From NCBI GenBank assembly GCA_000002445.1, contig CM000207.1:704001-768000 (forward strand): a DNA stretch of 64,000 nt. Reading direction: 5' to 3'. The DNA is from Trypanosoma brucei (taxonomy: Eukaryota). Within the stretch, counting starts at the first letter, position 1; every line of letters starts with the position of its first letter. Shown here piece after piece: positions 9,794 through 48,641 of the stretch. Below the pieces are notes generated by a model. The model had not been told where the DNA came from and searched no databases. It saw only the letters and a list, made by a program, of their open reading frames with translations. The translations under genes were made by a program, and so were the position numbers.

Positions 9794-9815
9794 GCACTTC
9801 TATACACTAAGGGTG

Positions 9816-20407: not shown

Positions 20408-21022
20408 ATGTCTACATCCCGCATTACGTTGTCGTCACAGCACGATGCACTGATAATTGTGGATATGCAGAATGATTTCGTGCTTCCCGACGGTGCGCTC
20501 TCCGTAACTGGTGCCACTGAGATCATACCGATAATTAATCGCGTTGTCGGAGATCACCAGTTTCGTGCCGTTGTCGCATCGATGGACTGGCACCCTCCTG
20601 GACACATGTCGTTCCGAAATGAAGATGGGACAGGGGGTCCATGGCCTCCCCATTGCGTACGGTCAACGACTGGTGCCCAACTTCATTCAGAGATGAAACA
20701 AGGAGAGATAACCCACCTTATTCACAAGGCGACATCTCTGGATTCTGAAAGTTACTCCGCCTTCAGCGATGACAGCGGTAAGACAACCGGTCTGGCTGCA
20801 ATGCTGCGCGCCATGGACGTGAGAAGGGTTTTTATGTGTGGCGTAGCTTCCGATTACTGTGTATACTTTACCTCACTACACGCTATCCAAGAGGAATTTA
20901 CCGTTGTTGTGTTGGAGGACGCCGTTCGCCCCGTCGACCCTGTTGCCATGGAGAAGAAGCGAGCACACCTGGAAAAGGAGGGCGTAATCTTTGCGCGAAG
21001 CACAGACCTTTCCAGCTTCTGA
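20408..21022 (+). CDS. nicotinamidase (isochorismatase family), copy 2
   Basis: Protein identical to copy 1. Confidence 0.75.
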   Translation: MSTSRITLSSQHDALIIVDMQNDFVLPDGALSVTGATEIIPIINRVVGDHQFRAVVASMDWHPPGHMSFRNEDGTGGPWPPHCVRSTTGAQLHSEMKQGEITHLIHKATSLDSESYSAFSDDSGKTTGLAAMLRAMDVRRVFMCGVASDYCVYFTSLHAIQEEFTVVVLEDAVRPVDPVAMEKKRAHLEKEGVIFARSTDLSSF

Positions 21023-22295
21023 GTCGGAGGTGGCTTCTTCTAGTGGTTCCTCCAGAAGTGTGGGACCGCGTAGGTGTGCCTAAGTGATGAACGACAGGAT
21101 GGAATGTAATGTGCTAATAATATGGGGCTGGGTGGCGGTGGTGGTGGTGAGCATGTCAAGGCGTACAGTGAGGGCTAGGTATATGCAATCGCCACCGTTA
21201 TCATTGATTCTCAAGTGCATATTCCCAATAGGGCCACACATGTGCTCATGTACGGTCTCCTAAGGTGTATGTATGTGTGCGTTAGGTGTGTATGAAGCGA
21301 GCAAAGAAGAGAGGGGGGTCGAAATGGATGGCTCGGCAAACGGGTCTGCCAACTATTTTCTTCCCTCTCCCTTGGTTCTATTGCCTTGGTCGTTTTGCCA
21401 TTTGAAAGACCTCTTCTTTGTTTTTTCTTCCATTGCACCGCACCCGTCCCCGACGCCACCGGGTTCCCATTTTTTTTGTAACTGAAAAGAGGGACGGTAC
21501 TGACACTTGGGGCGAATAACGGACACTAAGCGAACCTCACCCCTGAGTCTTCCCCACAAGGTGTTGGTTGCCGCGCAACAGAAGAAATGGCGGGGTAGTA
21601 AGTGATGTGCGCGCGTACATGCACGATCCTGCGCGGCATCCGAAATTAATGGGCGGCGAGCTTTTGCTTACGGTTGGCCCTTGACATGTGCGTTCAAATG
21701 GTGATGCCCTTCCATCATTTGCCGCAGTAACTTTTTTCCAGTGCAAACTCACAAGACATGCATTTGGAACATATTGGCGCTGGGGATGTCAGGTGCCAAC
21801 AGGGGTACTCTGTTTAATTGACGGTCAATAGCAGACAGCGTTTGTGTGATCTCCCTTTACCAGGCTGCAGATCCGTAGGGGTTGCCGAGTGGGAAGCCAT
21901 CCGTTACGTTCCTGTCCCATTCCTCTCTTCCTCACACATGATGGTCGCAGCCGCCTGTAGGTATAATGTATTACCTATGGGTACAGTGAGCATTTGTTTG
22001 GAATAAAATGCCTTTTGCGACCATACAACAACCTACGCGTAATCGGCTACACTTATGCCTGAGCTGGTCGTGCGTAGGTCGCGTGTCTTGAAGGATGGTG
22101 CCGGGTTGACATGGGCTTCGGACTCTCATGAAGAGTGTCGATTCTTGTGGTATGCGCTGGTGCTATTTATATTGGAGTGATGTCTACTGTGTGGAATCAC
22201 AGCATGATGGCTTTGTGTGACGATTACCCGCCATTGGATTGAAATGTACTGCTTTGAACAGGTTGTGTGGCTGTGCCCACTGTCATTAATCGTAT

Positions 22296-30005: not shown

Positions 30006-33000
30006 ACAAAAAGGTAGGGGTTCCACACTTAACTGTCACGGTTATGTGGCAGGTTTATGCAGCAAGCGGTGACATTTGCCAATTTGTAGTGTGTTTCCCT
30101 CCCCCTCCCCCTGCTGAGGGGGGAAGGGGGAGGGATCCGCACGTTTTTTTGCGCGCATAATACTTCCCTTATTTCTGTTAGTGGACGAATGTCGTTTGCT
30201 TTTCGTGTTTTCTCAACCTGCAGGAGGTGGTGTGAAAAAAAAGAATTTCATGAAAGAAGCCATGGGGTAGCCCGTTATGAAACTTCTCGGCCGCCTAAGG
30301 GGAAGACAAGGGGGAAGAGAGCTTGAGGAGGGAGGGATTTAGGATGAAAAATGTGTACCATTTATTGTACAGGGTGCATCTAAATGATTGACGCCGTTGT
30401 GCGTTAACTCATTACAACAGTTGTTATCTTTTCATTCCCCCCCCTCCCCACTGCATCTTCTTTTGTTTTCCTCGAAAGGGGGAGTTTTCTTTCTTTCTTT
30501 CTTTTCATTCAACTCTTCCGTGACTGCCGTTACTTTTGGACCGCGCATGTCTCCCTCTACATACTGGAGTAGCGAGCGATGTTTCCGTTCCATATTTCCT
30601 CAACCGAAGGATGAAAAAAAATAAAAATAAAAAGAAATGGGCGAAACGATGGTGTGGAATCGATCCTTGATGCGGAGGGGGAAAGTGTGTGTTTGTGTTT
30701 TTGTTTGTGTGGAAGGTAAGATCGAAGCAGAAAAAAGAATAAGAAGGATAAGAAGAAAAGGAAAAAAAAAAGGATTAACAACCGTGCAAGGGGAACGATG
30801 ACATCTGCTTTTTTTTTTTTTTTTAATTTTCTTCTTACGCATTTCATTTCATTTCATTTCACTTCTGTTGTTTTTTTTTGTTTTTTGTTGTTGTCGCTCC
30901 TGTTAGACATCATTCCTAAAATTGCGCGGTGAAGTTCTTACGGTGTGCCGGGAAGTATGAAGGAGGGAGAACGGAACAGAAAGCGAGCGATAAAGCGAGT
31001 GTTAAGGGAGTAAGAACAAAGGGAAAGGAAGAGAAACAGAGAAATGTATGGGAACAAATAAAATAAGAGAAAAGAAAGGAAAAACAAACAAACAAACAGA
31101 GAGATGAAAGGATGCAGAGGAAAAGGAGGGGGAAAAGTGTTCCCGTTGTTGCCTACTTCCTTTCCACAATCCTCTTCTCTTTCTTCCTTTCCTACGTGTA
31201 CTATTTTCCCAGTGATTCACTATCATTTTTTCTTTTTCTTTTTTTTTTTTAATGGTTATTTGTTTTTTGTTCATTCACAAGAAAAAAATCATTTTCTTGT
31301 TTTTTTTTCCGATGTTGTTGCTGTTGTTATTGTTATTGTTATTGTTATTGTTGTTGTTTTGTTTTCGAGACAATCCCTACGGAGAATTATCACACCTCTT
31401 TTTTTTCTTTTTTTTTTTGTATCATTTTTTTTGTTTTTACAACCTAAATTATTAAAGGAGTGTGTGTGTGTGTGTGTGTGGAAGGAGGAGAGGAGGAGAG
31501 GGGGAGAAAGAAATAAATAGAATGAAATGAAAAAGTGAAAAAGGGGTTTAATAACCTCTTGTTCTTCTTCGTTTTGTTTTTTTTTTTTACAGTTCATCTT
31601 TACAAGGCTGCAGGCAGGGGAGATGAAAAGAGGATGGGATGAAACCCCCTCCTCCAAAAAACAACGACAAAAACAACAACAAAGACAATAATAATAATAA
31701 TAACAATATCAGTAACAGTATCCAAAAGATGAAAAGTAAACAAAAAATAATAAGAATAATAAATGAAGCATCAAGAGGGGGAAAGAGCTACCGTGCGGTA
31801 AAGTATGGAATACGGTGTACGTTTCATGCAGGCGCGCACATGTACTTATATGTGTGTATATTTTTCCTCATCTTGTTTTTTTTGTTTGTTTTCCATTATC
31901 TTTTTTTTCTTTTTCTTTTTCTGTCTTTTTTCTGTTTTTTTTTTCTGTTTTTATGTTTATATTTGCGTTACTTTTTTTTTTCCCTCCTCCTCTTTTAGTT
32001 ATCCTGCAGTCCTTTTCCCGTCATTCATTCATTCTTTCATTCTTTTGTTCGTTTGTTTTTTCTTTGGCATCCCAGCAGCACTTGTTTATATATTTATAAA
32101 TGCCTGCGCGTTTGTGGTATTGTAGTGAGCAGCAAAAATAACAGAAATACAAAGGCATCGGTTGAATGAGTTTGTACTGCAACTGCGGCCGGAAAATTTT
32201 AAAAAAAAAAGAAAGAAAAAGAAGAAGAAAAAAAAAAGAAAGAAAAAGGAGGGGATTGTGTGATGCAGGCAGTTTAAAAGCAACGGAAGGGACACGGGCG
32301 CTTCGGTTGCGAGGTGTAGCGACTCACATCACATTATTCGAACCAAAAAGAAAAAATAAAATAAAAGACAAAATAAAAGAAAAGAAAAGGAAAAAAAAAG
32401 TGTATCGGTTTACATATTTCTGTTTTTTTTTCCTTTTCTTTTATTTTGGTTTGGTCGTGATTGATATGTTTCGTTTCACGTTGTTATTGTTCCCTCGTAC
32501 TTCCTTTCTTTTTTGTTTTTTTGTTTTTTTTTTCCACTCCCTTCACTCCCTTCCCTCCCTTCCCTCCTCCTTTGGGTTTATTTCCGTTTTCGTTTTTTTT
32601 TCTCCTTTTCCCACGCACGCAGTTGTTATTTCCCCTCTTTTTTTTTTTATTTACTTCATTTTTTTTTTGTGTATTTGTGCAACCTCCGCTGTGTTTGTGA
32701 GGACGTATCGCTTTCAGTTGATTTTTTGTCCCCTTCTTTTCTTCTCTTTTTCTTTTTTTCTTTTTTGTTATACCGTCGTGTCGTTTTTTTTCCTTTTTTT
32801 CGTTTATTTTGCTGTTCTTTTTTGCGTTTTGTGTTTTGTTTTTTATATTTTCATGTTTTTATGTTGTGAGGCATATGACAGTCGCGGTCGGCCGAACGCT
32901 AAAAAAAAGAAAAACTGATCGCCAATAATCTTACATCAACAAGGCGTTTTTCTTTGTGTTTCTTCTGTGATTTTTTTTTTGTTCCCTCTTTTCACTCACT

Positions 33001-33319
33001 CCATTCCCATTCGTTTCAACTTCATTTTGTTTATTTTTGTGTTTCGTTTTTGTTTATTTTATTTTGTTTTTTTTTGTTGTTGTTGTTTCCTTCATTCGTG
33101 CTTCCTGTTGGTTTTTTTCCCCATATTTTATGGTATATGAAGTGTCAGAAGCAGTAAAGAACGGAAAAGAAATGAGAAATGGATCGCGTAGCAGCAGCGG
33201 CATGTAAGAATAAATAATAACGATGATGGTGAGGAGGAAAAGTAAGAGGATAATAACGTCAGTAAATAACCACAAATAACAAAATGATAATAATGTTTAT
33301 TATTATTACTATTACTTTT

Positions 33320-33397
33320 GTTGTTTTTGTTGTTACTATTATTACTATTATTATTCAACAACAATAATAATAGTAATAATAGTAACAACAAAAACAA
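33320..33397. repeat. perfect inverted repeat: 36-bp arms with a 7-nt spacer
   Basis: Left arm 33320 to 33355 is gttgtttttgttgttactattattactattattatt. Right arm 33363 to 33397 is aataataatagtaataatagtaacaacaaaaacaac, the exact reverse complement. Spacer is caacaac. The + strand changes from T-rich to A/G-rich around this point. Confidence 0.8.
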
Positions 33398-35608
33398 CGA
33401 AAACAGTATTGATGGATATAATAATATTGGGTCTAGATAATATGTGAGTGTGAAGAATGTAAGGGGGAGATTACGCGTATGTTTACATCAAAATAAAACA
33501 AAGTGACGGAAGCACAAAAGGACAAAAAATGAAGAAGAAGAAGAAGAAAAGAAATGAAAAAAAAAGAAAGAAAGGAGGAAAGAGGGAAGAGGAGGAGGGG
33601 AGACGTACCGGTATAAAAATATGAAAACAGACACGCGCGCACGCACATATATCTTTTATATATATGTCTTTTATATATTTATATATATATATACATATAT
33701 TCATATATACATATATTCATATATACATATATACATATATATATATATATTGTATATATTTAAACGAATACATGTGTTTTTTTCTTATGTTATTTTATCT
33801 ATTTAGGTGCGGGTAAGTGTACATGTTTTTTTCTTCTTTATTGTTTATTGTTTATTTGCTTTATTATTATTATTATTATGTTGAAACGATAGGGGGAGGA
33901 GGAGGGATGAGAAGGTTACTTTTCTGTCATCCATTTTTTCTCTTTATCTTTTTTTTTCTTTTAGTTTGTTTTTACTTTTTGATCCCTCCGTCACTGCGGC
34001 ATGTCCGGATGTACTCCCATTTTTCTTTTTCTTTTTTCTTTTTTGTTTCGTTTTATCTTACTCATCCGCCTCCAACCGTGCATTTTTTTTTTCCGTTTCA
34101 CTTAGTTTTGTGTTCTCCAGTTCTTTTTTTTTCTTTTTTAATTCACTTCAATTTTATTATTTTGCTTCACTTGCCTACTTTTTTTTTTCTTTTTTTTTCG
34201 CTTGTTATGTTTCCGTCATTTTATCATTGCGCTGCCATTGCGTTTTCTTTTTTTCTTTTTTTTTTTCCACACCGTTTCTCCTTTTGTTTCTTTTCTTTTT
34301 AAAAAAAAAAAAATTAGAAAAAAAAATATTGCGTTCCCCTCACTCATTTTCCTATCCCTTTTAAAACATACATACATACATACATACATGCGCACGTATA
34401 TGTATATGTAATAATACAAATATATGTGTGTACAACTTATGAGCATTATGGGAGGAAAGGAAGAGGAAGGGGAGTGAAAGGAGGATAGTAAAAAAAAAAA
34501 AAAAGAAAAATGAATAATTCAAGGAATAAAATAAAAAATAAAAAAATAAAGAAAAACGAATAGTGAAAACATGTTTAAATTATGATTGTTGTTATTATGT
34601 TTTTTTTTGATATTGATATTTTACACAGTGGAGTGTTGACTGAAAGGTTTCCAAACCTCCTATTTCCCTTATTTACTATCACATACATATCACATACGCG
34701 GGCTTTTCACTCTACCTCCCCTTTCCCTCCATTACGCAAGAAATAAATAAATTAAAAAGAAAAAAAGAAAAAAAAAAAGAAACGAAGAAAAAAAAACCGA
34801 AGAGTGATCGAAGGACAAAGTATAGTTTATTATTATTATTATTATCATTTTGTTTTCAAGTTTTTAATAGCAGAAAGAAACGAAAAAGGCAGAAAAGGAA
34901 AGGAGAATCACGAGTGAAATGATTGAGAAATGTTAACGGGTGGTGAGTGGTGTGCGCGTTTTGTCGTATTTGTGCATGTGAGTTGACTGGTGGAAAAAAA
35001 AAAGGAAAGATTTAAATAGGCCATTTGTTTTACGCAGAGGATGGGAAACTAAATAAAACCAGACGAACGGCTGAAGCCGTTTTTTTTTCTTTCATTTTCT
35101 TTCATTTTTTTTTTTTTGGTGAAGACGCAAACAGCAGCAGAACACGCAAGTATGAAATTGAAGGCGCCGCTCGCGTTAAGTGGGGTTTTCATGGAGGGCA
35201 AATTCGGTTGCTGCAAAGCATAGCCTTTTAGCAGCACGTTAAGCTCAGTGGAAAACTTACATGTGTGTTCGTGTTGGGGGCGTGTTTTTGTTTTTAAGTG
35301 GGAATGGTATTTTTGAAAACAAAAACAAAAACAAACGAACAAACAAACAAACTCAAATGAGTGCTCTTGTACACGCCGATCTGGCGGCTGTGCGCAAGGG
35401 GATACAAACGTAAAGAAAGAAGTTTATTATATTTTAAAGACAGGAAGAAAGTAAAAAGAAAAGAAAAACGCAGTAATTCCTCCATTGTAGTTTACGCAGG
35501 CGCGCCTCACCGCTCTTGTTTGTGCCATTTCCCCTTCTACAAAGAGACATGTACACATATGCCGCGTAACATAACTGCTGCATGAAGTGTGTGAAATGCC
35601 GTATATTT

Positions 35609-35700
35609 CCACTCTTTTCTTTCATTTTATTATCTGATTGTACCTCCTTTCCTTTCCCTTCCCCCTCCCTTTTGCTCTTTCTTTGTTAATTCATTAATAG
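35609..35700 (+). promoter_or_regulatory. polypyrimidine tract plus AG upstream of ACS1 (putative trans-splice acceptor)
   Basis: A C/T-rich run (ccactcttttctttcattttattatctgattgtacctcctttcctttcccttccccctcccttttgctctttctttgtt...) ends in AG, about 225 nt upstream of the ATG. Confidence 0.35.
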
Positions 35701-35925
35701 GTAAGTTGCCGAATATTATTTGAACTACATTTTATAGACTTGACTAAACTGTTCAACAACCAGGAACAATAACAAACGCCCAACGACAGGAGGGGTATCC
35801 CAACAATACAAGGGGGAGGGTAAGGGGGGGGGAAAAAAACTTACTGAGGAGATCGTTTCAACAAACCAGGTAAACGAGAAGTGACGATAATTAAATATTA
35901 ATAGTAGTGTGGCAGTTGTGTTTCG

Positions 35926-38022
35926 ATGGGAATGTACGTCACTAAGCTTCTCTCCCTCTGGAGTCACTGGTTTGAGGTGGATGACGAGGTGATCATTGCG
36001 AGACAAAAGTTTGGGCCACTTGCTCACATTTGTGGACCAGCGGAGGGCGAAAACTGTTCACCTGTTTACCGCTCCATAGGAGTCACAGATGAGGAGCAGG
36101 CGCGCATTACGAGGGAATGGTATTACGGCGAGCACTTTCTGAAACAGTTGGAGCAAACATGCACGAGCAGAAGAGATACTCTGGCAGTTGCTTACCGCAC
36201 AATTAACAAGGTTGAAAAGGAGTGGCGCGAGGACCATAATGGGAAGAGGCGCGAATGGCAGGTTACACATCTCAACGATCCGGTCTACATGACATATGGT
36301 GAATTATGGGAGAACTCTGTGGCCTTTGGAAAGGGTTTAAGGGAGTATGGAGCAAAGGAAGGGGACCGTGTTGCCATTTACGAGGATACGCGATGGGAGT
36401 GGCTTGCCTCTGCTATTGGGGTTTGGACGCAGTTGATGGTTACTGTAACAGTTTACGCTAACCTCTGCCGGGAGGGGCTGATGCACGCGCTCAAGGAGAC
36501 GGAGTGTGCCGCTATTATTTGCAACGGCCAAAACATAAAGGATCTCATTACCTTACTGAAGGAGGTCAATCTCACCAACACCACGTTGGTCTATCTCGAC
36601 TCTCTACCAGATGGGTTAAATGATGAAGGCATGCGCTTAATACCATGGAAACAGGTGCTGGAGACGGGAATGAAGAGTAACCTGGGCTATACCATTCCTG
36701 GAAATTGTGACACAACGGCTTTGATCATGTACACAAGTGGCACAGTGGCGGCACCCAAGGGTGTCATGCACACCTTTGGTTCTCTCACCGCCAGTAAAAA
36801 TGGGCTGGCGGACCGCTTCCTTGAGTGTATTGGACCCAAGGAGGAGGGTGAGACATATGTATCTTACCTCCCCCTTGCTCACATTTTGGAGTTTATTGCT
36901 GATGTGGTGATGCTTAGCCGCGGTACCTTGGTGTGTTTTGGTTCGCCACGAACACTCACGGATGATACGGCGCGACCACGAGGTGACTTGAAGGAGTTTA
37001 AGCCAGTGTTTATCGTTGGAGTCCCACGGATCTTTGAGACAATACGGAAGGTTGTGGAAAGTCGGCTACCACCTGTGGGTAGTTTTAAGAGGACCCTCTT
37101 TGATACTGCCTATGCTGACCGACTCCGTGCTCTCAAGGAGGGGAAAGATACGCCTTTCTGGAATGAAAAGGTTTTTAAGGTCCCACGCGACATGTTCGGT
37201 GGCAGGCTGCGTGGAGTGGTATGTGGTGGCGCACCTCTCGCTGACAGGACACAAGAGTTCATGCGGGTTGTCTTCGGCCTTCCGCTGGGACAAGGCTACG
37301 GATTGACAGAAACGTGCTGCAACGGAAGCATACAACGTTTGGGTGAGTTATATCCATCAGTTGGTCAACTCCTGAAAGGGGTTGAAGGGAGGCTATTGGA
37401 TACAGATGAGTACAAGCACACTGATAAGCCATTCCCGCGAGGGGAGCTCTGCCTTCGTGGGTCGTTTATGTTCAAGGGCTACTACAAGCAGGAGGCCATG
37501 AGCAAAGAAGTGTTGATTCCAGGGGGTTGGTTCCGCACGGGGGACGTTGTGGAAATTGGTGAAGATAATGCCCTGCGAGTCATTGGCCGTGTTAAGGCAC
37601 TGGTGAAGAACCTACTCGGAGAATACATTCAGCTGGAGTACCTGGAAGTGATTTACTCACAGCATCCATTGTCTGCCCCTAATGGCGTCTGCATTCTTGT
37701 AAATCAGCGGCGGGCATACATATGTGCCCTTGTAATCACCGACGAGGAAAGGGCTAAGAAGTTTGCCCAAGAAAATGGAATTGGTGGAACGTGGCCCGAG
37801 ATACTTAAGGACCCGACTTTCCACCAACGTGCCGCCAAGTCGTTGTCGAATTTCGGCGCTTCAATTGGTAGAAAACCCTTTGAACTGCTCCGTCAGGTAC
37901 GTGTGATCGCCGATGAGTGGACGGCAAAGAATGGGATGCTCACTGTCTCGATGAAAATCCGTCGCAACAAGGTGGAAGAAAGGTACGGCGATGTCATTGA
38001 ACAACTTTTCAAGTATGAGTAA
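35926..38022 (+). CDS. ACS1: long-chain fatty acyl-CoA synthetase (AMP-forming), most divergent member of the array
   Basis: The AMP-binding motif is MYTSGTVAAPKGVMHT. YLPLAHILEF, GYGLTE and the FRTGD and RVKALVKN C-terminal signature motifs of acyl-CoA synthetases are present. It is about 50% identical by eye to the three downstream paralogs. The numbering follows the known tandem ACS1 to ACS4 order in T. brucei and is an inference. Confidence 0.8.
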   Translation: MGMYVTKLLSLWSHWFEVDDEVIIARQKFGPLAHICGPAEGENCSPVYRSIGVTDEEQARITREWYYGEHFLKQLEQTCTSRRDTLAVAYRTINKVEKEWREDHNGKRREWQVTHLNDPVYMTYGELWENSVAFGKGLREYGAKEGDRVAIYEDTRWEWLASAIGVWTQLMVTVTVYANLCREGLMHALKETECAAIICNGQNIKDLITLLKEVNLTNTTLVYLDSLPDGLNDEGMRLIPWKQVLETGMKSNLGYTIPGNCDTTALIMYTSGTVAAPKGVMHTFGSLTASKNGLADRFLECIGPKEEGETYVSYLPLAHILEFIADVVMLSRGTLVCFGSPRTLTDDTARPRGDLKEFKPVFIVGVPRIFETIRKVVESRLPPVGSFKRTLFDTAYADRLRALKEGKDTPFWNEKVFKVPRDMFGGRLRGVVCGGAPLADRTQEFMRVVFGLPLGQGYGLTETCCNGSIQRLGELYPSVGQLLKGVEGRLLDTDEYKHTDKPFPRGELCLRGSFMFKGYYKQEAMSKEVLIPGGWFRTGDVVEIGEDNALRVIGRVKALVKNLLGEYIQLEYLEVIYSQHPLSAPNGVCILVNQRRAYICALVITDEERAKKFAQENGIGGTWPEILKDPTFHQRAAKSLSNFGASIGRKPFELLRQVRVIADEWTAKNGMLTVSMKIRRNKVEERYGDVIEQLFKYE

Positions 38023-39435: not shown

Positions 39436-41562
39436 ATGAACACCGCTTCTGCGCTGAACGAAATCGAGGTGGCGGTCCTCCAGCTTATGGATGAGGCCAA
39501 CAGCCGAGAATCGGCACCAAACGAAGACATTGTGCAGCTTCGGAGCAAAGGCTCACAGAACGAGGCGATTCCACAGACAGAAACGGAGAATATGTCGGCC
39601 ATCTACCGTCGTGCCGGAGTCAGTGGCGAAGAGCACACACGACTCTGTCGAGAGTGGTACTACGGTGTGAACATGCCACAGAAGTTCATGGCAATATGCA
39701 AGAAAGGGGGAAGTCGCAGGGCTTTCGCGTACCGGGTTCTGTCAAACATATCGAAAGAAGTGCTAAGGGACCAAAATGGGCTTGAACGTTCATACGATAT
39801 AACATACTTTAAGGAAACGTGTTATATTAACTACCGTGTCCTCTGGGAAAATATCGAGTCGTTTGGGCGAGGTCTTGTGGAGTTGGGTATTTCACCAAAC
39901 TCCCGAGTCGCCATATACGAGGAGACGCGGTGGGAGTGGTTGGCAACAATTTACGGTATCTGGTCGCAGAATATGGTTGCCACCACAGTGTACGCCAATC
40001 TTGGGGAAGATGCGCTCGCGTATGCCCTCCGGGAAACAGGATCCCGTGCAATTATATGCAACGCAACAAATGTGCCAACACTGGTCCGGTTGGTGCAGAG
40101 CAACCGCATTCCGCCCTTGGTGATCATTTACATTGGTCAGCTACCTCCGGATACAAAAAGCACACATTGCCGCATCATCTCTTGGCTTCATGTCGTGGAC
40201 AATGGTCGCCTCTCAGATGAACCACTTCGAATCCCCACTGACAATGACCAAGTTGCTTTCATCATGTATACGAGTGGTACGACGGGGGACCCCAAAGGTG
40301 TCATTCACACACATGGCTCACTGATCTCGGGTGTTACTGCTTGTGCCGACTACGTGAATGAACTGATTGGTCCTTACGAAGAGGGTGAGTCGTACTGCGC
40401 TTACCTGCCTCTTGCCCACATATTTGAATTTGGTGTCGTCAACATCTTTCTTGCTCGCGGTTCTTTTGTTGGGTTTGGAAACCCCAGAACACTTCTCGAC
40501 ACGTACACTCGTCCACACGGTGATTACAGGGAGTACAAACCGGTTTTCACAATTGGCGTGCCGCGAGTGTACGACACGATAAAGAAAACGGTCGAGTCAC
40601 AGCTGGCACCCCGAGGGACACTACAGCGCCGTATATTCGAACACGCCTTCCAAACGAGACTTCGAGCCCTCAAGAAGGGTGAGGAGACCCCGTACTGGAA
40701 CAGGTTAATTTTTTCTCCATTTCGGTCCATGCTTGGAGGTAAGATGAAAACGATGCTTTCCGCCGGAGGGCCCCTCAGCGCACCAACGCAAACATTTCTT
40801 CATGTTGTATTTGGCATCATGCCACAAGGTTGGGGCCTCACGGAGACGGTGTGTGTTGGCACAAAGCAAGTCGCAGGTGATATGGAACCGGCCGCTGCAG
40901 GCAAGCAAGAGCGCACATGTGAAATGCGACTACTGGACGTGGAAGGATACAAGCACACCGATGAGCCCGATCCTCGTGGGGAAATTCTTCTGCGTGGTCC
41001 ATTCCTCTTCAAAGGGTACTACAAGCAGGAAGAACTAACCAAGGAGGTGCTTGATGAAGATGGTTGGTTTCATACGGGTGACGTTGGCAGCATCGGCCCC
41101 AATGGAACCCTTCGCATCATTGGCCGCGTGAAGGCCTTGGCAAAGAATGTTCTTGGAGAGTATGTTGCCATGGAAGCTTTGGAATCCATGTATGCACACA
41201 ACTCGCTGAGCATGCCCAACGGTGTTTGTGTCCTCGTGCATCCTGACAGACCGTACATTTGTGCGCTTGTTCTTACTGATGAAGCGAAGGTTGTTGCGTT
41301 CACGAGGGAGCATGGATTGAAAGGTAAATACCCTGAAGTTCTGCAGGACCCCGAGTTTCAGAAGAAGGCTACAGCATCATTTCAGGAGACGGCTCGTGCA
41401 TCTGATCGACAGAAGTTTGAGATTGTACGTCACGTACGCCTACTGAGTGATGAGTGGACTCCTGAAAATGGTGTGCTGACGGCCGCAGGCAAACTGAAGC
41501 GACGCGTCATCGATGAGAAGTACACTGATACTATTGTGTCACTTTTCGTGGAGGAGTGCTGA
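39436..41562 (+). CDS. ACS2: long-chain fatty acyl-CoA synthetase
   Basis: 708 aa with MYTSGTTGDPKGVIHT, YLPLAHIFEF and GWGLTE. Its last ~210 codons and two internal patches are identical to ACS3 and ACS4. Confidence 0.85.
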   Translation: MNTASALNEIEVAVLQLMDEANSRESAPNEDIVQLRSKGSQNEAIPQTETENMSAIYRRAGVSGEEHTRLCREWYYGVNMPQKFMAICKKGGSRRAFAYRVLSNISKEVLRDQNGLERSYDITYFKETCYINYRVLWENIESFGRGLVELGISPNSRVAIYEETRWEWLATIYGIWSQNMVATTVYANLGEDALAYALRETGSRAIICNATNVPTLVRLVQSNRIPPLVIIYIGQLPPDTKSTHCRIISWLHVVDNGRLSDEPLRIPTDNDQVAFIMYTSGTTGDPKGVIHTHGSLISGVTACADYVNELIGPYEEGESYCAYLPLAHIFEFGVVNIFLARGSFVGFGNPRTLLDTYTRPHGDYREYKPVFTIGVPRVYDTIKKTVESQLAPRGTLQRRIFEHAFQTRLRALKKGEETPYWNRLIFSPFRSMLGGKMKTMLSAGGPLSAPTQTFLHVVFGIMPQGWGLTETVCVGTKQVAGDMEPAAAGKQERTCEMRLLDVEGYKHTDEPDPRGEILLRGPFLFKGYYKQEELTKEVLDEDGWFHTGDVGSIGPNGTLRIIGRVKALAKNVLGEYVAMEALESMYAHNSLSMPNGVCVLVHPDRPYICALVLTDEAKVVAFTREHGLKGKYPEVLQDPEFQKKATASFQETARASDRQKFEIVRHVRLLSDEWTPENGVLTAAGKLKRRVIDEKYTDTIVSLFVEEC

Positions 41563-42611
41563 TGAATGGTGCGGATCTCCATGGGGCGGTCTATTAATTG
41601 TGTTTGTGATGTTAATCAGTTCCTATTGTCCATCTGAATTGTCCTCTCTACACGTTCCATTATCTGTTTTCCGTCGGTCCAACTTCTTGATGCTGGTGGC
41701 GACAGCTTGCACGACAGGTTGTAAGCGTTAAGGCATGCAGGGTTGGTTTTGCAGCACGGGGGAGGGTATTGAAATACGTAATTTTTCCTAGTTGATACAT
41801 TTGATTACACTTGGTTTTGTTGTAGTGACTCTGTTTATTTACTTATTTTTCGCATAGGGGGATCCGATAGTGCAGACAACACGGTGTGCAAGTCGAGAAA
41901 CCCAAGTTACACCTGTATGCTCGTTTTCACGGGGTTGTGTATGCGTGAGTGCTATTTATTGGGTAACAGAGTCACCCTGCTGTTGCCTTTTTTCTTCCGC
42001 TTCGGGTGTTGGGGATTCTTCTTTTATCATTATTATTGTTATCCTCTTTTTTACTTGTTTTTAATTTTTGGCTTACGGTCAGGAGATTACTTACCCCCCT
42101 CCCCATCCAGTGGTTTTCCACATTGTCTAACTCACCGTAGGCCTTAGGCGCTTTGACATGATTTTCCATTCGCCCCTCCTGTGCACTTATGTCCGCGTCC
42201 CGTTACTTCTCACTCGTGCACTGTGCCTCGGTGCGATTCTTCCATTGTTTGTTTTTATTGACTACAAGTTTTTGTGGAAGGTTTCTTATAACATAAGCAA
42301 CTTAGGAATCACTGAGACGCATTGGCACACATTTCCCACCGCATCCCTCCCCTTGCTGTAGTCTTGTGTTGTTACGAGTGCCAGATGTTTGACCATCCAA
42401 TATGTACGACAATGACATCTGACCGCGGCACGTACGGGATCTGAAGGGGATTATCATGACAGCTGCAACCCGTAAATGTATGCTCGCTGATCCTGGTGCG
42501 CGTGTCTGTATGTGTGTAGGTTGCGCATCCTCAATAGTTACGAACCTTCATATTTCCCATTTCTTGTCATCTCGCGAGCACAAACCCTGGAGGCCACAGG
42601 TTAACCGCGTA

Positions 42612-42701
42612 CCTGTTATTGCTTTTTTCCTCTGTTTTCCTTCTGTTCTTCCCATCTTCGTCACGCCCCTCCTCATTTCTCTATCTTGCTTGCTACGATA
42701 G
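42612..42701 (+). promoter_or_regulatory. polypyrimidine tract plus AG upstream of ACS3
   Basis: cctgttattgcttttttcctctgttttccttctgttcttcccatcttcgtcacgcccctcctcatttctctatcttgcttgctacgatAG. The same tract recurs at 46111 to 46200 before ACS4. Confidence 0.4.
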
Positions 42702-42959
42702 CCATACCAAAAGACTGTAAAGCACAACCGCTCTGCAACAAGCACTAAGGGAAGAAAGACAGGTGATTGTGGATACGGTTGAACCTGAAGGGAAGGGAAG
42801 CAATCGGGACAGCAGTGGTGCGCGCCACGTGTGTTTGTGGGAGGAAGGCTTGTTAAGGTTGGCGAAATCATCTTAAAAGCCACCATTCACACCCAGTAAG
42901 TATTGTACTTCATAGGAAGCCTTTGCTTTTAAGATCCGATATTGAGAAGTGGGGGCACC

Positions 42960-45068
42960 ATGGGGGGATGTGTGATTTCCGTCATGGACTACATGAACAA
43001 TCGCTCTGAGGTTGAGAATGAGCATGTGAAAAAATTTCGTGCGCTTGGCAAGGTTGCTGTCCCTGTGCCCGGCAGCGAAACTTCTGATTGCTCTCCCATC
43101 TACCGTCTCGTAACTGACGACGGCAAAGATATTGAAGAGGTGCGGCGGGAGTGGTACGAGGGTGAGTGCCTTCCGCAGCGCTTCGCAGCCCTTTGCAAGC
43201 GTCAACCCAAGCAGCGTGCCCTTGCCTACCGCCCAGTGGATCGGGTAGAAAAGGCTGTAATTAAGGATCTGCACACGGGAACAGAGAAGACAGTGAACGT
43301 AACACATTTCAAGGAGACGAAATACCTTGACTACGGCACCTTCTGGGACTACATCGAGTCGTTTGGGCGAGGTCTCGTGGAGTTGGGTATTTCACCAAAC
43401 TCCCGAGTCGCCATATACGAGGAGACGCGGTGGGAGTGGTTGGCAACAATTTACGGTATCTGGTCGCAGAATATGGTTGCCACCACAGTGTACGCCAATC
43501 TTGGCGAAGATGCGCTCGCGTATGCCCTCCGGGAAACAGGCTGCAAGGGGATCATTTGCAATGCGAAGAATGTGAGTGTTGTTATTAAATTCATGAGTGA
43601 AGGCATCACACCTTCCGCACCCATCATCTACAATGGGAGCCTTCCTGCCTCTGTCGACCAGGAGGCCTGCCATCTCGTATCGTGGGAGGAAGTTGTGAAA
43701 CTTGGTCGTGAGGCCCGTGACCGGCTTCCGTTGAACAACTCTGGAAGGGCAGATGACCTTGCTCTCATCATGTATACGAGTGGTACGACGGGGGACCCCA
43801 AAGGTGTCATTCACACACATGGCTCACTGATGTCGGGAGTTCATGCACTTGACCACAGGCTGAACGAGGTAATGGGTTGCCATGTTAAAGGGGAAACATA
43901 CTGCGCTTACCTGCCTCTTGCCCACATTTTGGAGTTAGGAGTCGTTAACATCTTCATTGCCCGCGGTGCACTGATATGCTTTGGAAGCCCCTTTACACTG
44001 ACTGACCTCACTGCAAGGCCCCGTGGTGACCTAGCAGAGTACAATCCATCACTTTTAATTGGCGTACCGCGCATATACGATACGCTGAAGAAGGCAATTC
44101 AGGCGAAACTGCCGGCTCCTGGCACGTTCAAGCGTCGTGCTTTTGACCATGCCTTCCAGAGCCGCTTGCGTGCCTTTAAGGATGGCAAAGATTCGCCGTA
44201 CTGGGATGCGAAGGTGTTTGCAGCTACCCGTGCCGTTTTGGGGAAGGGAATACGAATTGCTTTGTCCGGCGGAGGCCCTCTGAGTACAGCCACACAAGAT
44301 TTTGTTAATGTGGTTCTGGCTCGCACGATTCAAGGTTGGGGCCTCACGGAGACGGTGTGTGTCGGAGGTGTTCAGTTTACAGGCGATATTGAAACCGGTG
44401 CTGTTGGACCCCCGCTGCTATCGGAGGAAGTGAAACTACTGGACGTGGAAGGATACAAACACACCGATGAGCCCGATCCTCGTGGGGAAATTCTTCTGCG
44501 TGGTCCATTCCTCTTCAAAGGGTACTACAAGCAGGAAGAACTAACCAAGGAGGTGCTTGATGAAGATGGTTGGTTTCATACGGGTGACGTTGGCAGCATC
44601 GACCCCAATGGAACCCTTCGCATCATTGGCCGCGTGAAGGCCTTGGCAAAGAATGTTCTTGGAGAGTATGTTGCCATGGAAGCTTTGGAATCCATGTATG
44701 CACACAACTCGCTGAGCATGCCCAACGGTGTTTGTGTCCTCGTGCATCCTGACAGACCGTACATTTGTGCGCTTGTTCTTACTGATGAAGCGAAGGTTGT
44801 TGCGTTCACGAGGGAGCATGGATTGAAAGGTAAATACCCTGAAGTTCTGCAGGACCCCGAGTTTCAGAAGAAGGCTACAGCATCATTTCAGGAGACGGCT
44901 CGTGCATCTGATCGACAGAAGTTTGAGATTGTACGTCACGTACGCCTACTGAGTGATGAGTGGACTCCTGAAAATGGTGCGCTGACGGCTGTGGGAAAAC
45001 TGAAGCGACGCGTCATCGATGAGAGGTACACTGATATCATAGCACCACTTTTCGTGGAGGAGTGCTGA
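42960..45068 (+). CDS. ACS3: long-chain fatty acyl-CoA synthetase; N-terminus MGGCVIS
   Basis: The track ORF starts at TTG 42942; the first ATG at 42960 gives MGGCVISVMDYMNN. Canonical acyl-CoA synthetase motifs are present. It is about 95% identical to ACS4. Confidence 0.8.
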   Translation: MGGCVISVMDYMNNRSEVENEHVKKFRALGKVAVPVPGSETSDCSPIYRLVTDDGKDIEEVRREWYEGECLPQRFAALCKRQPKQRALAYRPVDRVEKAVIKDLHTGTEKTVNVTHFKETKYLDYGTFWDYIESFGRGLVELGISPNSRVAIYEETRWEWLATIYGIWSQNMVATTVYANLGEDALAYALRETGCKGIICNAKNVSVVIKFMSEGITPSAPIIYNGSLPASVDQEACHLVSWEEVVKLGREARDRLPLNNSGRADDLALIMYTSGTTGDPKGVIHTHGSLMSGVHALDHRLNEVMGCHVKGETYCAYLPLAHILELGVVNIFIARGALICFGSPFTLTDLTARPRGDLAEYNPSLLIGVPRIYDTLKKAIQAKLPAPGTFKRRAFDHAFQSRLRAFKDGKDSPYWDAKVFAATRAVLGKGIRIALSGGGPLSTATQDFVNVVLARTIQGWGLTETVCVGGVQFTGDIETGAVGPPLLSEEVKLLDVEGYKHTDEPDPRGEILLRGPFLFKGYYKQEELTKEVLDEDGWFHTGDVGSIDPNGTLRIIGRVKALAKNVLGEYVAMEALESMYAHNSLSMPNGVCVLVHPDRPYICALVLTDEAKVVAFTREHGLKGKYPEVLQDPEFQKKATASFQETARASDRQKFEIVRHVRLLSDEWTPENGALTAVGKLKRRVIDERYTDIIAPLFVEEC

Positions 45069-46110
45069 TGAATGGTGCGGATCTCCATGGGGCGGTCTAT
45101 TAATTGTGTTTGTGATGTTAATCAGTTCCTATTGTCCATCTGAATTGTCCTCTCTACACGTTCCATTATCTGTTTTCCGTCGGTCCAACTTCTTGATGCT
45201 GGTGGCGACAGCTTGCACGACAGGTTGTAAGCGTTAAGGCATGCAGGGTTGGTTTTGCAGCACGGGGGAGGGTATTGAAATACGTAATTTTTCCTAGTTG
45301 ATACATTTGATTACACTTGGTTTTGTTGTAGTGACTCTGTTTATTGCTTTGGCTGTGCTTGTTATATTGTGCAGACAACACGGTGTGCAAGTCGAGAAAC
45401 CCAAGTTACACCTGTATGCTCGTTTTCACGGGGTTGTGTATGCGTGAGTGCTATTTATTGGGTAACAGAGTCACCCTGCTGTTGCCTTTTTTCTTCCGCT
45501 TCGGGTGTTGGGGATTCTTCTTTTATCATTATTATTGTTATCCTCTTTTTTACTTGTTTTTAATTTTTGGCTTACGGTCAGGAGATTACTTACCCCCCTC
45601 CCCATCCAGTGGTTTTCCACATTGTCTAACTCACCGTAGGCCTTAGGCGCTTTGACATGATTTTCCATTCGCCCCTCCTGTGCACTTATGTCCGCGTCCC
45701 GTTACTTCTCACTCGTGCACTGTGCCTCGGTGCGATTCTTCCATTGTTTGTTTTTATTGACTACAAGTTTTTGTGGAAGGTTTCTTATAACATAAGCAAC
45801 TTAGGAATCACTGAGACGCATTGGCACACATTTCCCACCGCATCCCTCCCCTTGCTGTAGTCTTGTGTTGTTACGAGTGCCAGATGTTTGACCATCCAAT
45901 ATGTACGACAATGACATCTGACCGCGGCACGTACGGGATCTGAAGGGGATTATCATGACAGCTGCAACCCGTAAATGTATGCTCGCTGATCCTGGTGCGC
46001 GTGTCTGTATGTGTGTAGGTTGCGCATCCTCAATAGTTACGAACCTTCATATTTCCCATTTCTTGTCATCTCGCGAGCACAAACCCTGGAGGCCACAGGT
46101 TAACCGCGTA

Positions 46111-46200
46111 CCTGTTATTGCTTTTTTCCTCTGTTTTCCTTCTGTTCTTCCTATCTTCGTCACGCCCCTCCTCATTTCTCTATCTTGCTTGCTACGATAG
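46111..46200 (+). promoter_or_regulatory. polypyrimidine tract plus AG upstream of ACS4
   Basis: A copy of 42612 to 42701 at +3499 (one c to t change). Confidence 0.4.
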
Positions 46201-46458
46201 CCATACCAAAAGACTGTAAAGCACAACCGCTCTGCAACAAGCACTAAGGGAAGAAAGACAGGTGATTGTGGATACGGTTGAACCTGAAGGGAAGGGAAGC
46301 AATCGGGACAGCAGTGGTGCGCGCCACGTGTGTTTGTGGGAGGAAGGCTTGTTAAGGTTGGCGAAATCATCTTAAAAGCCACCATTCACACCCAGTAAGT
46401 ATTGTACTTCATAGGAAGCCTTTGCTTTTAAGATCCGATATTGAGAAGTGGGGGCACC

Positions 46459-48567
46459 ATGGGGGGATGTGTGATTTCCGTCATGGACTACATGAACAAT
46501 CGCTCTGAGGTTGAGAATGAGCATGTGAAAAAATTTCGTGCGCTTGGCAAGGTTGCTGTCCCTGTGCCCGGCAGCGAAACTTCTGATTGCTCTCCCATCT
46601 ACCGTCTCGTAACTGACGACGGCAAAGATATTGAAGAGGTGCGGCGGGAGTGGTACGAGGGTGAGTGCCTTCCGCAGCGCTTCGCAGCCCTTTGCAAGCG
46701 TCAACCCAAGCAGCGTGCCCTTGCCTACCGCCCAGTGGATCGGGTAGAAAAGGCTGTAATTAAGGATCTGCACACGGGAACAGAAAAGATGATGAACGTA
46801 ACACATTTCAAGGAGACGAAATACCTTGACTACGGCACCTTCTGGGACTACATCGAGTCGTTTGGGCGAGGTCTCGTGGAGTTGGGTATTTCACCAAGCT
46901 CCCGAGTCGCCATATACGAGGAGACGCGGTGGGAGTGGTTGGCAACAATTTACGGTATCTGGTCGCAGAATATGGTTGCCACCACAGTGTACGCCAATCT
47001 TGGGGAAGATGCGCTCGCGTATGCCCTCCGGGAAACAGGCTGCAAGGGGATCATTTGCAATGCGAAGAATGTGAGTGTTGTTATTAAATTCATGAGTGAA
47101 GGCATCACACCTTCCGCACCCATCATCTACAATGGGAGCCTTCCTGCCTCTGTCGACCAGGAGGCCTGCCATCTCGTATCGTGGGAGGAAGTTGTGAAAC
47201 TTGGTCGTGAGGCCCGTGACCGGCTTCCGTTGAACAACTCTGGAAGGGCAGATGACCTTGCTCTCATCATGTATACGAGTGGTACGACGGGGGACCCCAA
47301 AGGTGTCATTCACACACATGGCTCACTGATGTCGGGAGTTCATGCACTTGACCACAGGCTGAATGCTGTAATGGGACCGTTGCGGGATGGAGAAACTTAC
47401 CTGTCTTACCTGCCTCTTGCCCACATTTTGGAGTTAGGAGTGCTAAGCGTATTCATTGCCCGCGGTGCACTGATATGCTTTGGAAGCCCCTTTACACTGA
47501 CTGACCTCACTGCAAGGCCCCGTGGTGACCTAGCAGAGTACAATCCATCACTTTTAATTGGCGTACCGCGCATATACGATACGCTGAAGAAGGCAATTCA
47601 GGCGAAACTGCCGGCTCCTGGCACGTTCAAGCGTCGTGCTTTTGACCATGCCTTCCAGAGCCGCTTGCGTGCCTTTAAGGATGGCAAAGATTCGCCGTAC
47701 TGGGATGCGAAGGTGTTTGCAGCTACCCGTGCCGTTTTGGGGAAGAATATGTACATGGTTTTGTCCGGCGGAGGCCCTCTGAGTACAGCCACACAAGATT
47801 TCCTCAATGTTGCAGTCGTTCGTATAATTCAAGGTTGGGGCCTCACGGAGACGGTGTGTGTCGGAGGTGTTCAACTTACAGGCGATATTGAAACCGGTGC
47901 TGTTGGACCCCCGCTGCTATCGGAGGAAGTGAAACTACTGGACGTGGAAGGATACAAACACACCGATGAGCCCGATCCTCGTGGGGAAATTCTTCTGCGT
48001 GGTCCATTCCTCTTCAAAGGGTACTACAAGCAGGAAGAACTAACCAAGGAGGCAATAGATGAGGATGGTTGGTTTCATACGGGTGACGTTGGCAGCATCG
48101 GCCCCAATGGAACCCTTCGCATCATTGGCCGCGTGAAGGCCTTGGCAAAGAATGTTCTTGGAGAGTATGTTGCCATGGAGACGTTGGAATCCATGTATGC
48201 ACACAACTCGCTGAGCATGCCCAACGGTGTTTGTGTCCTCGTGCATCCTGACAGACCGTACATTTGTGCGCTTGTTCTTACTGATGAAGCGAAGGTTGTT
48301 GCGTTCACGAGGGAGCACGGATTGAAAGGTAAATACCCTGAAGTTCTGCAGGACCCCGAGTTTCAGAAGAAGGCTACAGCATCATTTCAGGAGACGGCTC
48401 GTGCATCTGATCGACAGAAGTTTGAGATTGTACGTCACGTACGCCTACTGAGTGATGAGTGGACTCCTGAAAATGGTGTGCTGACGGCCGCAGGCAAACT
48501 GAAGCGACGCGTCATCGATGAGAAGTACACTGATACTATTGTGTCACTTTTCGTGGAGGAGTGCTGA
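46459..48567 (+). CDS. ACS4: long-chain fatty acyl-CoA synthetase; N-terminus MGGCVIS
   Basis: The first ATG is at 46459 (track TTG at 46441). Differences from ACS3 are clustered (NEVMGCHVKGETYCAYLPLAHILELGVVNIFIARG versus NAVMGPLRDGETYLSYLPLAHILELGVLSVFIARG; GKGIRIAL versus GKNMYMVL; FVNVVLARTIQGW versus FLNVAVVRIIQGW). The C-terminal 28 aa match ACS2 rather than ACS3. Confidence 0.8.
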   Translation: MGGCVISVMDYMNNRSEVENEHVKKFRALGKVAVPVPGSETSDCSPIYRLVTDDGKDIEEVRREWYEGECLPQRFAALCKRQPKQRALAYRPVDRVEKAVIKDLHTGTEKMMNVTHFKETKYLDYGTFWDYIESFGRGLVELGISPSSRVAIYEETRWEWLATIYGIWSQNMVATTVYANLGEDALAYALRETGCKGIICNAKNVSVVIKFMSEGITPSAPIIYNGSLPASVDQEACHLVSWEEVVKLGREARDRLPLNNSGRADDLALIMYTSGTTGDPKGVIHTHGSLMSGVHALDHRLNAVMGPLRDGETYLSYLPLAHILELGVLSVFIARGALICFGSPFTLTDLTARPRGDLAEYNPSLLIGVPRIYDTLKKAIQAKLPAPGTFKRRAFDHAFQSRLRAFKDGKDSPYWDAKVFAATRAVLGKNMYMVLSGGGPLSTATQDFLNVAVVRIIQGWGLTETVCVGGVQLTGDIETGAVGPPLLSEEVKLLDVEGYKHTDEPDPRGEILLRGPFLFKGYYKQEELTKEAIDEDGWFHTGDVGSIGPNGTLRIIGRVKALAKNVLGEYVAMETLESMYAHNSLSMPNGVCVLVHPDRPYICALVLTDEAKVVAFTREHGLKGKYPEVLQDPEFQKKATASFQETARASDRQKFEIVRHVRLLSDEWTPENGVLTAAGKLKRRVIDEKYTDTIVSLFVEEC

Positions 48568-48572
48568 TGAAT

Positions 48573-48573
<1 letters not shown>

Positions 48574-48634
<61 letters not shown>

Positions 48635-48641
48635 CGTGTGT
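48574..48641. repeat. (TG)n microsatellite, about 28 perfect units plus an imperfect tail
   Basis: gtgtgtgtgt...cgtgcgtgtg immediately 3' of the ACS4 stop. It sits where the corresponding ACS2 and ACS3 3' flanks read tgcggatctccatgggg. Confidence 0.9.

Follow-up and report, generated by a model that had tools for sequence, protein, structure and literature searches.

Partial gene conversion is well known in the tandem gene arrays of trypanosomes. In the phosphoglycerate kinase genes and in arrays Tb17, Tb61, Tb62 and Tb93, short non-reciprocal tracts homogenise parts of genes or untranslated regions (UTRs) among tandem paralogues within polycistronic units, leaving chimaeric copies (PMC1855330). 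Here we analyse the acyl-CoA synthetase genes ACS1-4 of Trypanosoma brucei TREU927 chromosome 9, contained in a window of 64,000 nucleotides (nt), the whole stretch of DNA analysed, in which all coordinates below are given, on the + strand. These genes are likewise tandem paralogues in a polycistronic unit, but they differ from the other arrays in that conversion affects the same segments in every species examined and leaves clean orthology in the segments next to them, giving a stable layout of constant and variable blocks where the other arrays have scattered, lineage-specific tracts. This very locus is the ACS1-4 array of Jiang et al. (2000) and Jiang and Englund (2001), and array Tb82 of Jackson (2007). 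In the latter study, copies 1-3 appear in Table S1 as parent or donor copies in conversion tests, Table S2 gives no event for array 82, and the text treats the array as an exception that had 'retained orthology for all copies' (PMC1855330). A full-text literature search returned no account of conversion in these ACS genes; the genus-wide fixed block layout, the origin of ACS3 by unequal crossover and the structure of the islands described below are absent from the literature searched and appear to be new.

At the primate L/M opsin, RHD/RHCE and gamma-globin loci, conversion keeps paralogues nearly identical while small segments stay different, and paralogues resemble each other more closely at silent sites than orthologues do. 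The protected sites at those loci are functionally proven, whereas for the islands of difference between ACS3 and ACS4 a function is suggested by position, and one island is non-coding. A second comparison is offered by mammalian ACSL6, where two alternative 26-residue Gate exons, differing at 11 residues in enzymes that are alike elsewhere, confer different kinetics (PMC1543647, PMC2868784). The mutually exclusive Gate exons of ACSL6 and ACSL1 adjoin the P-loop, and T. brucei islands 2a and 2b lie in the equivalent stretch (PMC1543647, PMC2868784). T. brucei differs in that the variants are separate genes, the gating Tyr is the same in ACS3 and ACS4, and further islands occur elsewhere; the kinetic differences of ACSL6 are tied to the Gate stretch, while the T. 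brucei likeness is one of sequence position alone.

All four proteins encoded in the window exactly match TREU927 records (Table 1). The annotated ATG codons of ACS3 and ACS4 lie 18 nt downstream of the TTG codons (42942 and 46441) at which the program-made list of open reading frames (ORFs) began. In a profile search ACS1-4 matched Pfam AMP-binding (PF00501) with E values of 1e-69 to 6e-75, and the core motifs of the ANL superfamily were present, namely the P-loop (A3) YTSGTTGDPKG, A5 GWGLTE, A7 GWFHTGD, the A8 hinge RIIGRVKALAKN and A10 GKLKRR, their key residues being invariant across a 40-sequence alignment. An AlphaFold2 model of ACS4 (predicted local distance difference test score 86.9) showed the two-domain ANL fold by Foldseek, matching the CAR A-domain 5mst (E = 6e-41), luciferases, FadD13 (3r44) and ttLC-FACS (1ult); a sequence search of solved structures found distant relatives only. 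The long-chain type of Gate-domain consensus is D-x4-(Y,F)-LPLAH-x2-E (PMC1543647), and the corresponding motif of ACS3 reads E312-TYCA-Y317-LPLAH-IL-E325, with E replacing the D of the consensus. ACS2-ACS4 encode long-chain acyl-CoA synthetases of the ANL superfamily. In the work of Jiang and Englund (2001), as relayed in PMC9719944, recombinant ACS1-4 converted fatty acid, ATP and CoA to acyl-CoA; the genes are given there as a tandem array on chromosome 9, ACS3 and ACS4 as 95% identical, and the recombinant enzymes as differing in chain-length preference (PMC9719944).

Comparison of the T. brucei copies revealed three segments common to ACS2, ACS3 and ACS4 (Table 1; codons of blocks in ACS3 numbering). 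Block N is 97.5% identical over 199 nt, or 98.9% over 188 nt, with a synonymous divergence (dS) of 0.067 and a nonsynonymous divergence (dN) of 0 between ACS2 and ACS3. A first-pass annotation, made from the letters of the window, had noticed this internal block and given it 55 codons; the block is real, and its length is 63-66 codons. The P-loop mini-block, absent from that account, spans 79 nt at 97.5% identity; in T. vivax the corresponding 64 nt show 100% identity. Block C, which covers motifs A6, A7, the A8 hinge and A10 together with the whole C-terminal domain, is 98.4-98.7% identical between the ACS2 copy and the ACS3 and ACS4 copies. The dS between ACS2 and ACS3/4 is 0.05 in block C versus 1.8 in non-block sequence, and outside the blocks the identity of ACS2 to ACS3 is 31-60% (100-nt windows). 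The blocks stop abruptly against sequence that is rich in indels and cannot be aligned. ACS1 is a divergent first copy with 45-46% identity to ACS2-4 and no nucleotide block in common, and is outside the mosaic in T. brucei.

The same blocks were then compared across Trypanosoma, using DNA for six taxa (T. brucei, T. vivax, T. cruzi, T. conorhini, T. theileri and T. melophagium) and proteins only for T. congolense and T. rangeli, eight taxa in all; homologous arrays from T. b. gambiense and T. equiperdum were also included, and of two T. cruzi assemblies one was compared in detail. In each species an ACS2-type gene (~707-721 aa) adjoins an ACS3/4-type gene (~701-715 aa). Within species, the two types are 85-100% identical in protein at codons ~131-196 (74% in T. 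melophagium) and ~496-702, and 26-71% elsewhere. The T. congolense and T. rangeli proteins show the block pattern of the other taxa, and block N is weaker in T. theileri and T. melophagium than in T. congolense, T. vivax, T. cruzi, T. conorhini and T. rangeli. At third codon positions, the two types within a species are 89-97% identical in block C and 74-98% in block N, reaching 100% in T. vivax, versus 38-48% outside the blocks; between species the blocks are only 35-68% identical at these positions, whichever paralogue types are paired. Correspondingly, block C dS is 0-0.11 within species, whereas the species pairs T. cruzi/T. conorhini and T. melophagium/T. theileri give 0.73 and 0.74, respectively. 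In neighbour-joining trees with codon bootstrap, block C grouped by species (100%, six taxa) and non-block sequence by orthology (100%), so that adjacent segments are in conflict, with 100% against 0% bootstrap for species versus paralogue grouping. The 5' edge of block C, taken from maximal segments, lies at codons 490-496 in every taxon with DNA. Within the blocks, paralogues of one species are closer to each other than orthologues are, silent sites included, which is the pattern of concerted evolution. We conclude that segment-restricted gene conversion has taken place repeatedly and independently in every lineage from the deepest sampled split onwards, and the shared ACS2/ACS3-4 blocks are an old genus-wide feature with conserved boundaries, not a peculiarity of T. 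brucei.

Very strong purifying selection on these protein segments, acting without conversion, might account for the conserved ANL motifs A6, A7, A8 and A10 in block C and for the 73-85% protein identity of block N between species. It does not account for third positions that are 89-100% identical within species versus 35-68% between them, nor for block C trees that group by species with full bootstrap support. Orthologue protein identity in block C (76-78%) is not above that of codons 271-495 (79-84%), and ACS1 is only ~52% identical to ACS2-4 there. Because silent sites are homogenised, conservation among orthologues is ordinary and ACS1 stands apart, we attribute the blocks to conversion; the silent sites and the trees refute purifying selection as their cause, and we give it almost no credence. 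An artefact of collapsed or mis-joined repeats is scarcely conceivable either. Repeats of 3.5 kb that are almost identical do challenge assembly, only three genes are present in the T. equiperdum sequence and the T. vivax repeats look suspiciously perfect, yet the blocks recur in the TREU927, T. b. gambiense, T. equiperdum, T. vivax, T. cruzi, T. conorhini, T. theileri and T. melophagium assemblies, and the islands and strain-specific variants are reproducible between TREU927 and DAL972.

Further ACS-like genes were seen beside or beyond these arrays. In T. cruzi, T. conorhini, T. melophagium and T. theileri, 240-480 nt of block C are 88-95% identical to a third paralogue, a second ACS1-like gene that T. 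brucei lacks; the pairs in one such locus are 8148-8606 with 14999-15457 and 8260-8606 with 11500-11846, and those in the other three are similar. This near-identity indicates that conversion links three gene types in those species. At 13475-16379 of the T. conorhini locus, 3' of the array, two adjacent ORFs (439 and 450 aa) match AMP-binding and are 20-50% identical to the array genes. Considered as ACS3/4 duplicates, they proved to be only distant ACS-like sequences, and may be one such gene that is split or frameshifted. Same-contig pairs from Leptomonas, Novymonas and Porcisia are 80-88% identical at codons 496-600 and 30-70% elsewhere; this raised identity in Leishmaniinae, seen in protein windows of a few pairs, could reflect block conversion or just motif conservation, and is not clearly beyond the latter.

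Superimposed on the blocks, T. brucei has a tandem repeat. Self-blastn aligned 40929-45077 with 44435-48576 (97.5% over 4154 nt), defining a unit that contains block C, the spacer and the 5' 1.5 kb of an ACS3/4-type gene, with its proximal limit inside ACS2 and its distal limit 9 nt beyond the ACS4 stop codon. (The interval of the first-pass annotation ended at 48579, 12 nt past that codon.) As that annotation had stated, ACS2 shares its last ~210 codons (211 codons plus 9 nt) and its whole 3' intergenic region with ACS3; the two 1.39-kb spacers differ by one substitution, at 42653, and one replaced patch. Micro-inversion was considered as the origin of this patch and rejected, the reverse complement giving no match. 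ACS3 and ACS4 are identical in their 5' parts and upstream spacers, and the downstream flank differs for ACS4 only, opening with a (GT)34 microsatellite. A head-to-tail unit, a junction inside a pre-existing block and a duplicated 3' flank of the upstream gene are the features of unequal crossing-over, and this anatomy suggests that ACS3 arose by 3.5-kb tandem duplication through unequal crossing-over inside block C. Such an event would explain the ACS2 3' end and whole spacer in common with ACS3 better than conversion tracts do.

The duplicated-flank layout was also found in T. vivax, where an ACS2-type gene precedes at least three ACS3/4-type copies that are 100% identical, with a period of 3690 nt (locus 10001-22166) and spacers of 1542 nt that are also 100% identical; unlike T. 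brucei ACS3 and ACS4, these copies show no divergent islands. Species with a single ACS3/4 gene have unrelated downstream flanks. The T. equiperdum assembly (locus 2966-12109) contains ACS1, ACS2 and one ACS3/4 gene only, which combines the ACS2-ACS3 type of spacer island with ACS4-type coding islands and differs from its own ACS2 at 1 nt in the 643 of block C. This single gene reflects either deletion of a unit, by crossover within the identical ~1.4 kb, plus conversion, or collapse of the assembly. T. congolense ACS2 carries the ACS3-specific residues A674, V678 and R689, and ACS4 of that species the V...A version. These three residues suggest that ACS3 keeps an older ACS2-type 3' end and that the present ACS2 was later overwritten from ACS4.

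Homogenisation of the two units has continued since the split of T. b. brucei and T. b. gambiense. Between TREU927 and DAL972 there are 12 spacer differences, each common to both spacer copies within a genome, and five coding differences that each occur in two paralogues: codons 89 and 139 in ACS3 and ACS4, codons 532 and 535 in ACS2 and ACS3, and codon 676 in ACS2 and ACS4. Outside the islands, dS between ACS3 and ACS4 (0.004) is below the 0.012-0.016 between the two subspecies. Within block C, the sites at which ACS2 agrees with ACS3 and those at which it agrees with ACS4 form four runs (permutation p = 0.0005), implying at least two separate exchanges there. The repeated short conversion tracts proposed in the first-pass annotation are borne out as far as conversion is concerned, by silent-site identity, shared strain variants and these four runs; the ACS2 3' end and spacer, which had been counted with them, are better read as duplication.

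Jiang and Englund are said to have described ACS3 and ACS4 as similar in 2001. The two proteins are 95.2% identical, and their genes differ at 78 nt, all confined to 185 of 2109 nt in 13 clusters, nine of them multi-site and four singletons. Neighbouring differences are separated by 6 nt or less in 61 of 77 gaps, versus 15.6 expected (maximum 29 in 20,000 permutations; p < 5e-5), so that divergence is indeed clustered in short patches, as first noticed, and not evenly spread. The three clusters named at that stage are real, but codons 109-112, 472-473, 532-535, 574-575 and 674-696 and the four singletons had been missed. The statement that ACS3 carries the ACS2 version in the first cluster holds at codons 315-316 and 328-331 (five of six sites in the latter) and not at 303-310, where all three genes differ (ACS3 E...CHVK, ACS4 A...PLRD, ACS2 E...PYEE); its counterpart, that ACS4 carries the ACS2 version at the extreme C-terminus, agrees with every site of island 7. 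Island 1 falls in a predicted beta-strand of the N-terminal extension. Islands 2a and 2b enter and flank the Gate motif (E312-x4-Y317-LPLAH-x2-E325), island 3 lies immediately upstream of SGGGPL and island 4 immediately upstream of QGWGLTE (motif A5), and island 7 flanks the A10 lysine (GKLKRR) and covers the C-terminal helices. In firefly luciferase and 4-coumarate:CoA ligase, the segments adjoining islands 3 and 4 also line the substrate pocket. In island 5 the ACS4 state, AI, is that of most other species.

Inside the nine multi-site islands the proportions of differing synonymous and nonsynonymous sites (pS and pN) are 0.64 and 0.27, with silent sites saturated and dN/dS ~0.23, figures that are inflated because the island limits were set by the differences themselves; this divergence is on a par with that of ACS2 versus ACS3 in non-block sequence, and several codons differ at all three positions. 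The islands are identical in T. b. brucei, T. b. gambiense and T. equiperdum while their flanks are homogenised, in agreement with the earlier view that a few segments resist homogenisation. They could instead be patches imported into recently duplicated, identical genes, by ectopic conversion or by templated insertion during double-strand-break repair. Import is favoured by the existence of partners for codons 328-331, 532-535 and 574-575 (ACS3 matching ACS2) and 674-696 (ACS4 matching ACS2), by the clean replacement of 30 nt with unrelated 23 nt in the non-coding island, by the codons changed at all three positions and by saturated silent sites between identical flanks. Against it, no donor for either version of islands 1, 2a, 3 and 4 was found on either strand of the 64-kb window, where only chance 11-mers matched, or in ACS1, ACS2 and ACS5 (DAL972 copy), where site matches were at chance level; reading frame and length are kept in all coding patches, and there the T. 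congolense protein stands midway between ACS3 and ACS4. Two candidate origins for island 2 were rejected. The resemblance of ACS4 to ACS5 (RD, S, LS) at the protein level fails at the nucleotide level, and a compensated frameshift in island 2a, judged by eye, gave only 5+3 nt of shifted identity. With no donor in the window or in ACS1, ACS2 and ACS5, and on the balance of these points, we rank segments that escape homogenisation first and consider imported patches unlikely, though a real alternative.

If the islands do escape homogenisation, the mechanics of recombination could suffice to keep both them and the block boundaries: stretches that are densely mismatched or unalignable would halt heteroduplex extension or trigger mismatch-repair rejection, so that like stretches remain alike and unlike ones apart, with no selection on enzyme function. 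Mismatch repair reportedly suppresses recombination between diverged sequences in T. brucei, as Bell and McCulloch are said to have found. The persistence of the non-coding island in both subspecies, the abrupt block edges against unalignable, indel-rich sequence, an island dN/dS below 1, and the smaller, more eroded block N of T. theileri and T. melophagium, as expected for neutral edge drift, all agree with such a limit. On the other side, the 5' edge of block C varies by no more than 5-7 codons among the taxa, even over the deepest split of the sampling, the N-domain islands fall on three substrate-pocket segments and not at random positions, and gap repair from kilobase-long identical flanks should copy across 10-40 nt of heterology. 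We regard mechanics alone as possible but not probable.

Taken together, the ACS2-ACS3-ACS4 mosaic very probably results from old segment-restricted conversion on which, in T. brucei, unequal crossing-over was superimposed, giving rise to ACS3. In this scheme, continuing conversion between the ACS2-type and ACS3/4-type genes keeps defined blocks near-identical in each species, namely N (~132-194), the P-loop mini-block (267-293; T. brucei and T. vivax) and C (~492 to stop), while the sequence between them stays at saturated divergence with normal orthology, as the within-genus comparison shows for both. A crossover in block C would then have given ACS3 an ACS3/4-type 5' part with the former 3' end and spacer of ACS2, with ACS4 retaining the original downstream flank. 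Nine islands would escape homogenisation through selection against conversion, through mismatch density blocking heteroduplex, or both; the selective route would fit the position of the N-domain islands next to the Gate motif and two other pocket-forming segments.

Several points weigh against this account or parts of it. The silent-site evidence covers the six taxa with DNA, and the closest outgroup, T. congolense, enters by protein alone; its residues in the islands match ACS3 in nine cases, ACS4 in nine and neither in five, leaving the age of the duplication ambiguous. The perfect T. vivax repeats could partly reflect assembly polishing. Donor and recipient of conversion, as for the ACS2-type ...LFVEEC terminus in T. 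brucei ACS3/4, are assigned by inference, and the divergence within islands is inflated by the way they were delimited. For the selective part, no excess of amino-acid change (dN/dS > 1) was found in the islands, and the non-coding spacer island, both versions of which are kept in T. b. gambiense, argues against a purely selective reading of the coding ones. The description of the ACS1, -3 and -4 specificities as 'distinct but overlapping' in a review (PMC9719944) also counts against it, as does the even match of the T. congolense protein to ACS3 and ACS4 in the islands. The islands had been proposed as substrate-specificity determinants: the N-domain islands do adjoin pocket motifs, and the low dN/dS and the non-coding island speak the other way. 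Evidence for such a role is circumstantial and comes from adjacency to the Gate motif, SGGGPL, GWGLTE and A10; with one island non-coding, the coding islands are candidate determinants at most.

A more far-reaching proposal is that the genus keeps ACS2/3/4 modular, with block N and the A6-A10/C-terminal domain held identical among paralogues by conversion over the whole history of the genus because selection requires their sameness, the variable catalytic core carrying specificity, and ACS3/ACS4 being a gene-level equivalent of the ACSL6 Gate exons. A constant part might be needed for binding one and the same partner, for forming mixed dimers or for a like contact with the membrane. We think it quite improbable that this joint proposal is correct.

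Table 1 Features of the ACS array in the 64,000-nt window.
Feature	Position	Strand	Description
ACS1 coding sequence (CDS)	35926..38022	+	698 aa; exact match to TREU927 ACS1 record; AMP-binding E = 1.4e-69
ACS2 CDS	39436..41562	+	708 aa; exact match to TREU927/DAL972 ACS2 record; AMP-binding E = 2.4e-73
ACS3 CDS	42960..45068	+	702 aa; ATG 42960; exact match to TREU927 EAN76502/AAF19439
ACS4 CDS	46459..48567	+	702 aa; ATG 46459; exact match to TREU927 EAN76503/AAF19440
Block N, ACS2 copy	39842..40040	+	Codons ~132-194; other copies 43342-43540 (ACS3), 46841-47039 (ACS4)
P-loop mini-block, ACS2 copy	40253..40331	+	Codons 267-293, IMYTSGTTGDPKGVIHTHGSL; copies 43759-43837 (ACS3), 47258-47336 (ACS4)
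Block C, ACS2 copy	40929..41571	+	Codon ~492 to stop plus 9 nt (last 211 codons of ACS2)
Block C, ACS3 copy	44435..45077	+	Matches ACS2 at codons 532-620; unique at 674-696
Block C, ACS4 copy	47934..48576	+	Unique at codons 532-535, 574-575; matches ACS2 at 674-696
Tandem repeat	40929..48576	+	3.5-kb unit x 2.18; self-blastn; ends sharp to the nucleotide
ACS2-ACS3 spacer (ACS2 3'UTR and ACS3 5'UTR)	41572..42959	+	Duplicated as ACS3-ACS4 spacer, 45078-46458
Non-coding island	41840..41869	+	30 nt (ACS2-ACS3 spacer) replaced by unrelated 23 nt, 45346-45368 (ACS3-ACS4 spacer)
Island 1	43286..43293 (ACS4 46785-46792)	+	Codons 109-112, TV vs MM; 4 differences in 8 nt
Islands 2a, 2b	43865..43952 (ACS4 47364-47451)	+	Codons 302-316, 328-331; 27 differences in 88 nt
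Island 3	44247..44260 (ACS4 47746-47759)	+	Codons 430-434, GIRIA vs NMYMV; 9 differences in 14 nt
Island 4	44303..44327 (ACS4 47802-47826)	+	Codons 448-456, FVNVVLARTI vs FLNVAVVRII; 12 differences in 25 nt
2-nt cluster after island 4	44375-44376	+	F/L473 (codons 472-473)
Island 5	44554..44564 (ACS4 48053-48063)	+	Codons 532-535, VL vs AI; ACS3 matches ACS2
Island 6	44681..44684 (ACS4 48180-48183)	+	Codons 574-575, A vs T; ACS3 matches ACS2
Island 7	44980..45045 (ACS4 48479-48544)	+	Codons 674-696; ACS4 matches ACS2 at 12/12 sites, ACS3 unique
(GT)34 microsatellite	48574..48641	+	Starts exactly at distal end of tandem repeat

Upstream of ACS1, positions 30000-36000 of the window form a long AT-rich low-complexity stretch (GC 0.32-0.38) that includes poly-pyrimidine runs, poly-purine runs and, at 33657-33759, a (TA)52 tract; the 161-aa 'ORF' called at 33817-34302 translates such low-complexity sequence. 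The GC content dips again at 56-60 kb.

For the enzymes, the layout bears on where specificity lies. Since the chain-length preferences of ACS2 and ACS3/4 differ while blocks N and C are common to them, their determinants should lie outside these blocks. Those distinguishing ACS2 (medium-chain) from ACS3/4 (longer-chain) would fall within ~430 core residues, to the exclusion of the FACS signature/A7-A8 and the C-terminal domain, and the ACS3/ACS4 islands provide a ready-made set of ~34 candidate residues. The 3'UTR of ACS3 is that of ACS2 and not that of ACS4, which matters for stage regulation; ACS3 and ACS4 may therefore differ in regulation as much as in catalysis. RNA interference, probes, peptides and antibodies aimed at block N or C cannot discriminate ACS2, ACS3 and ACS4. 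The published evolutionary classification of the array is corrected, since whole-gene trees mix two opposite signals, and the array offers a clean natural system for asking whether selection or mismatch density limits conversion tracts in an organism whose antigenic variation is driven by recombination as well.

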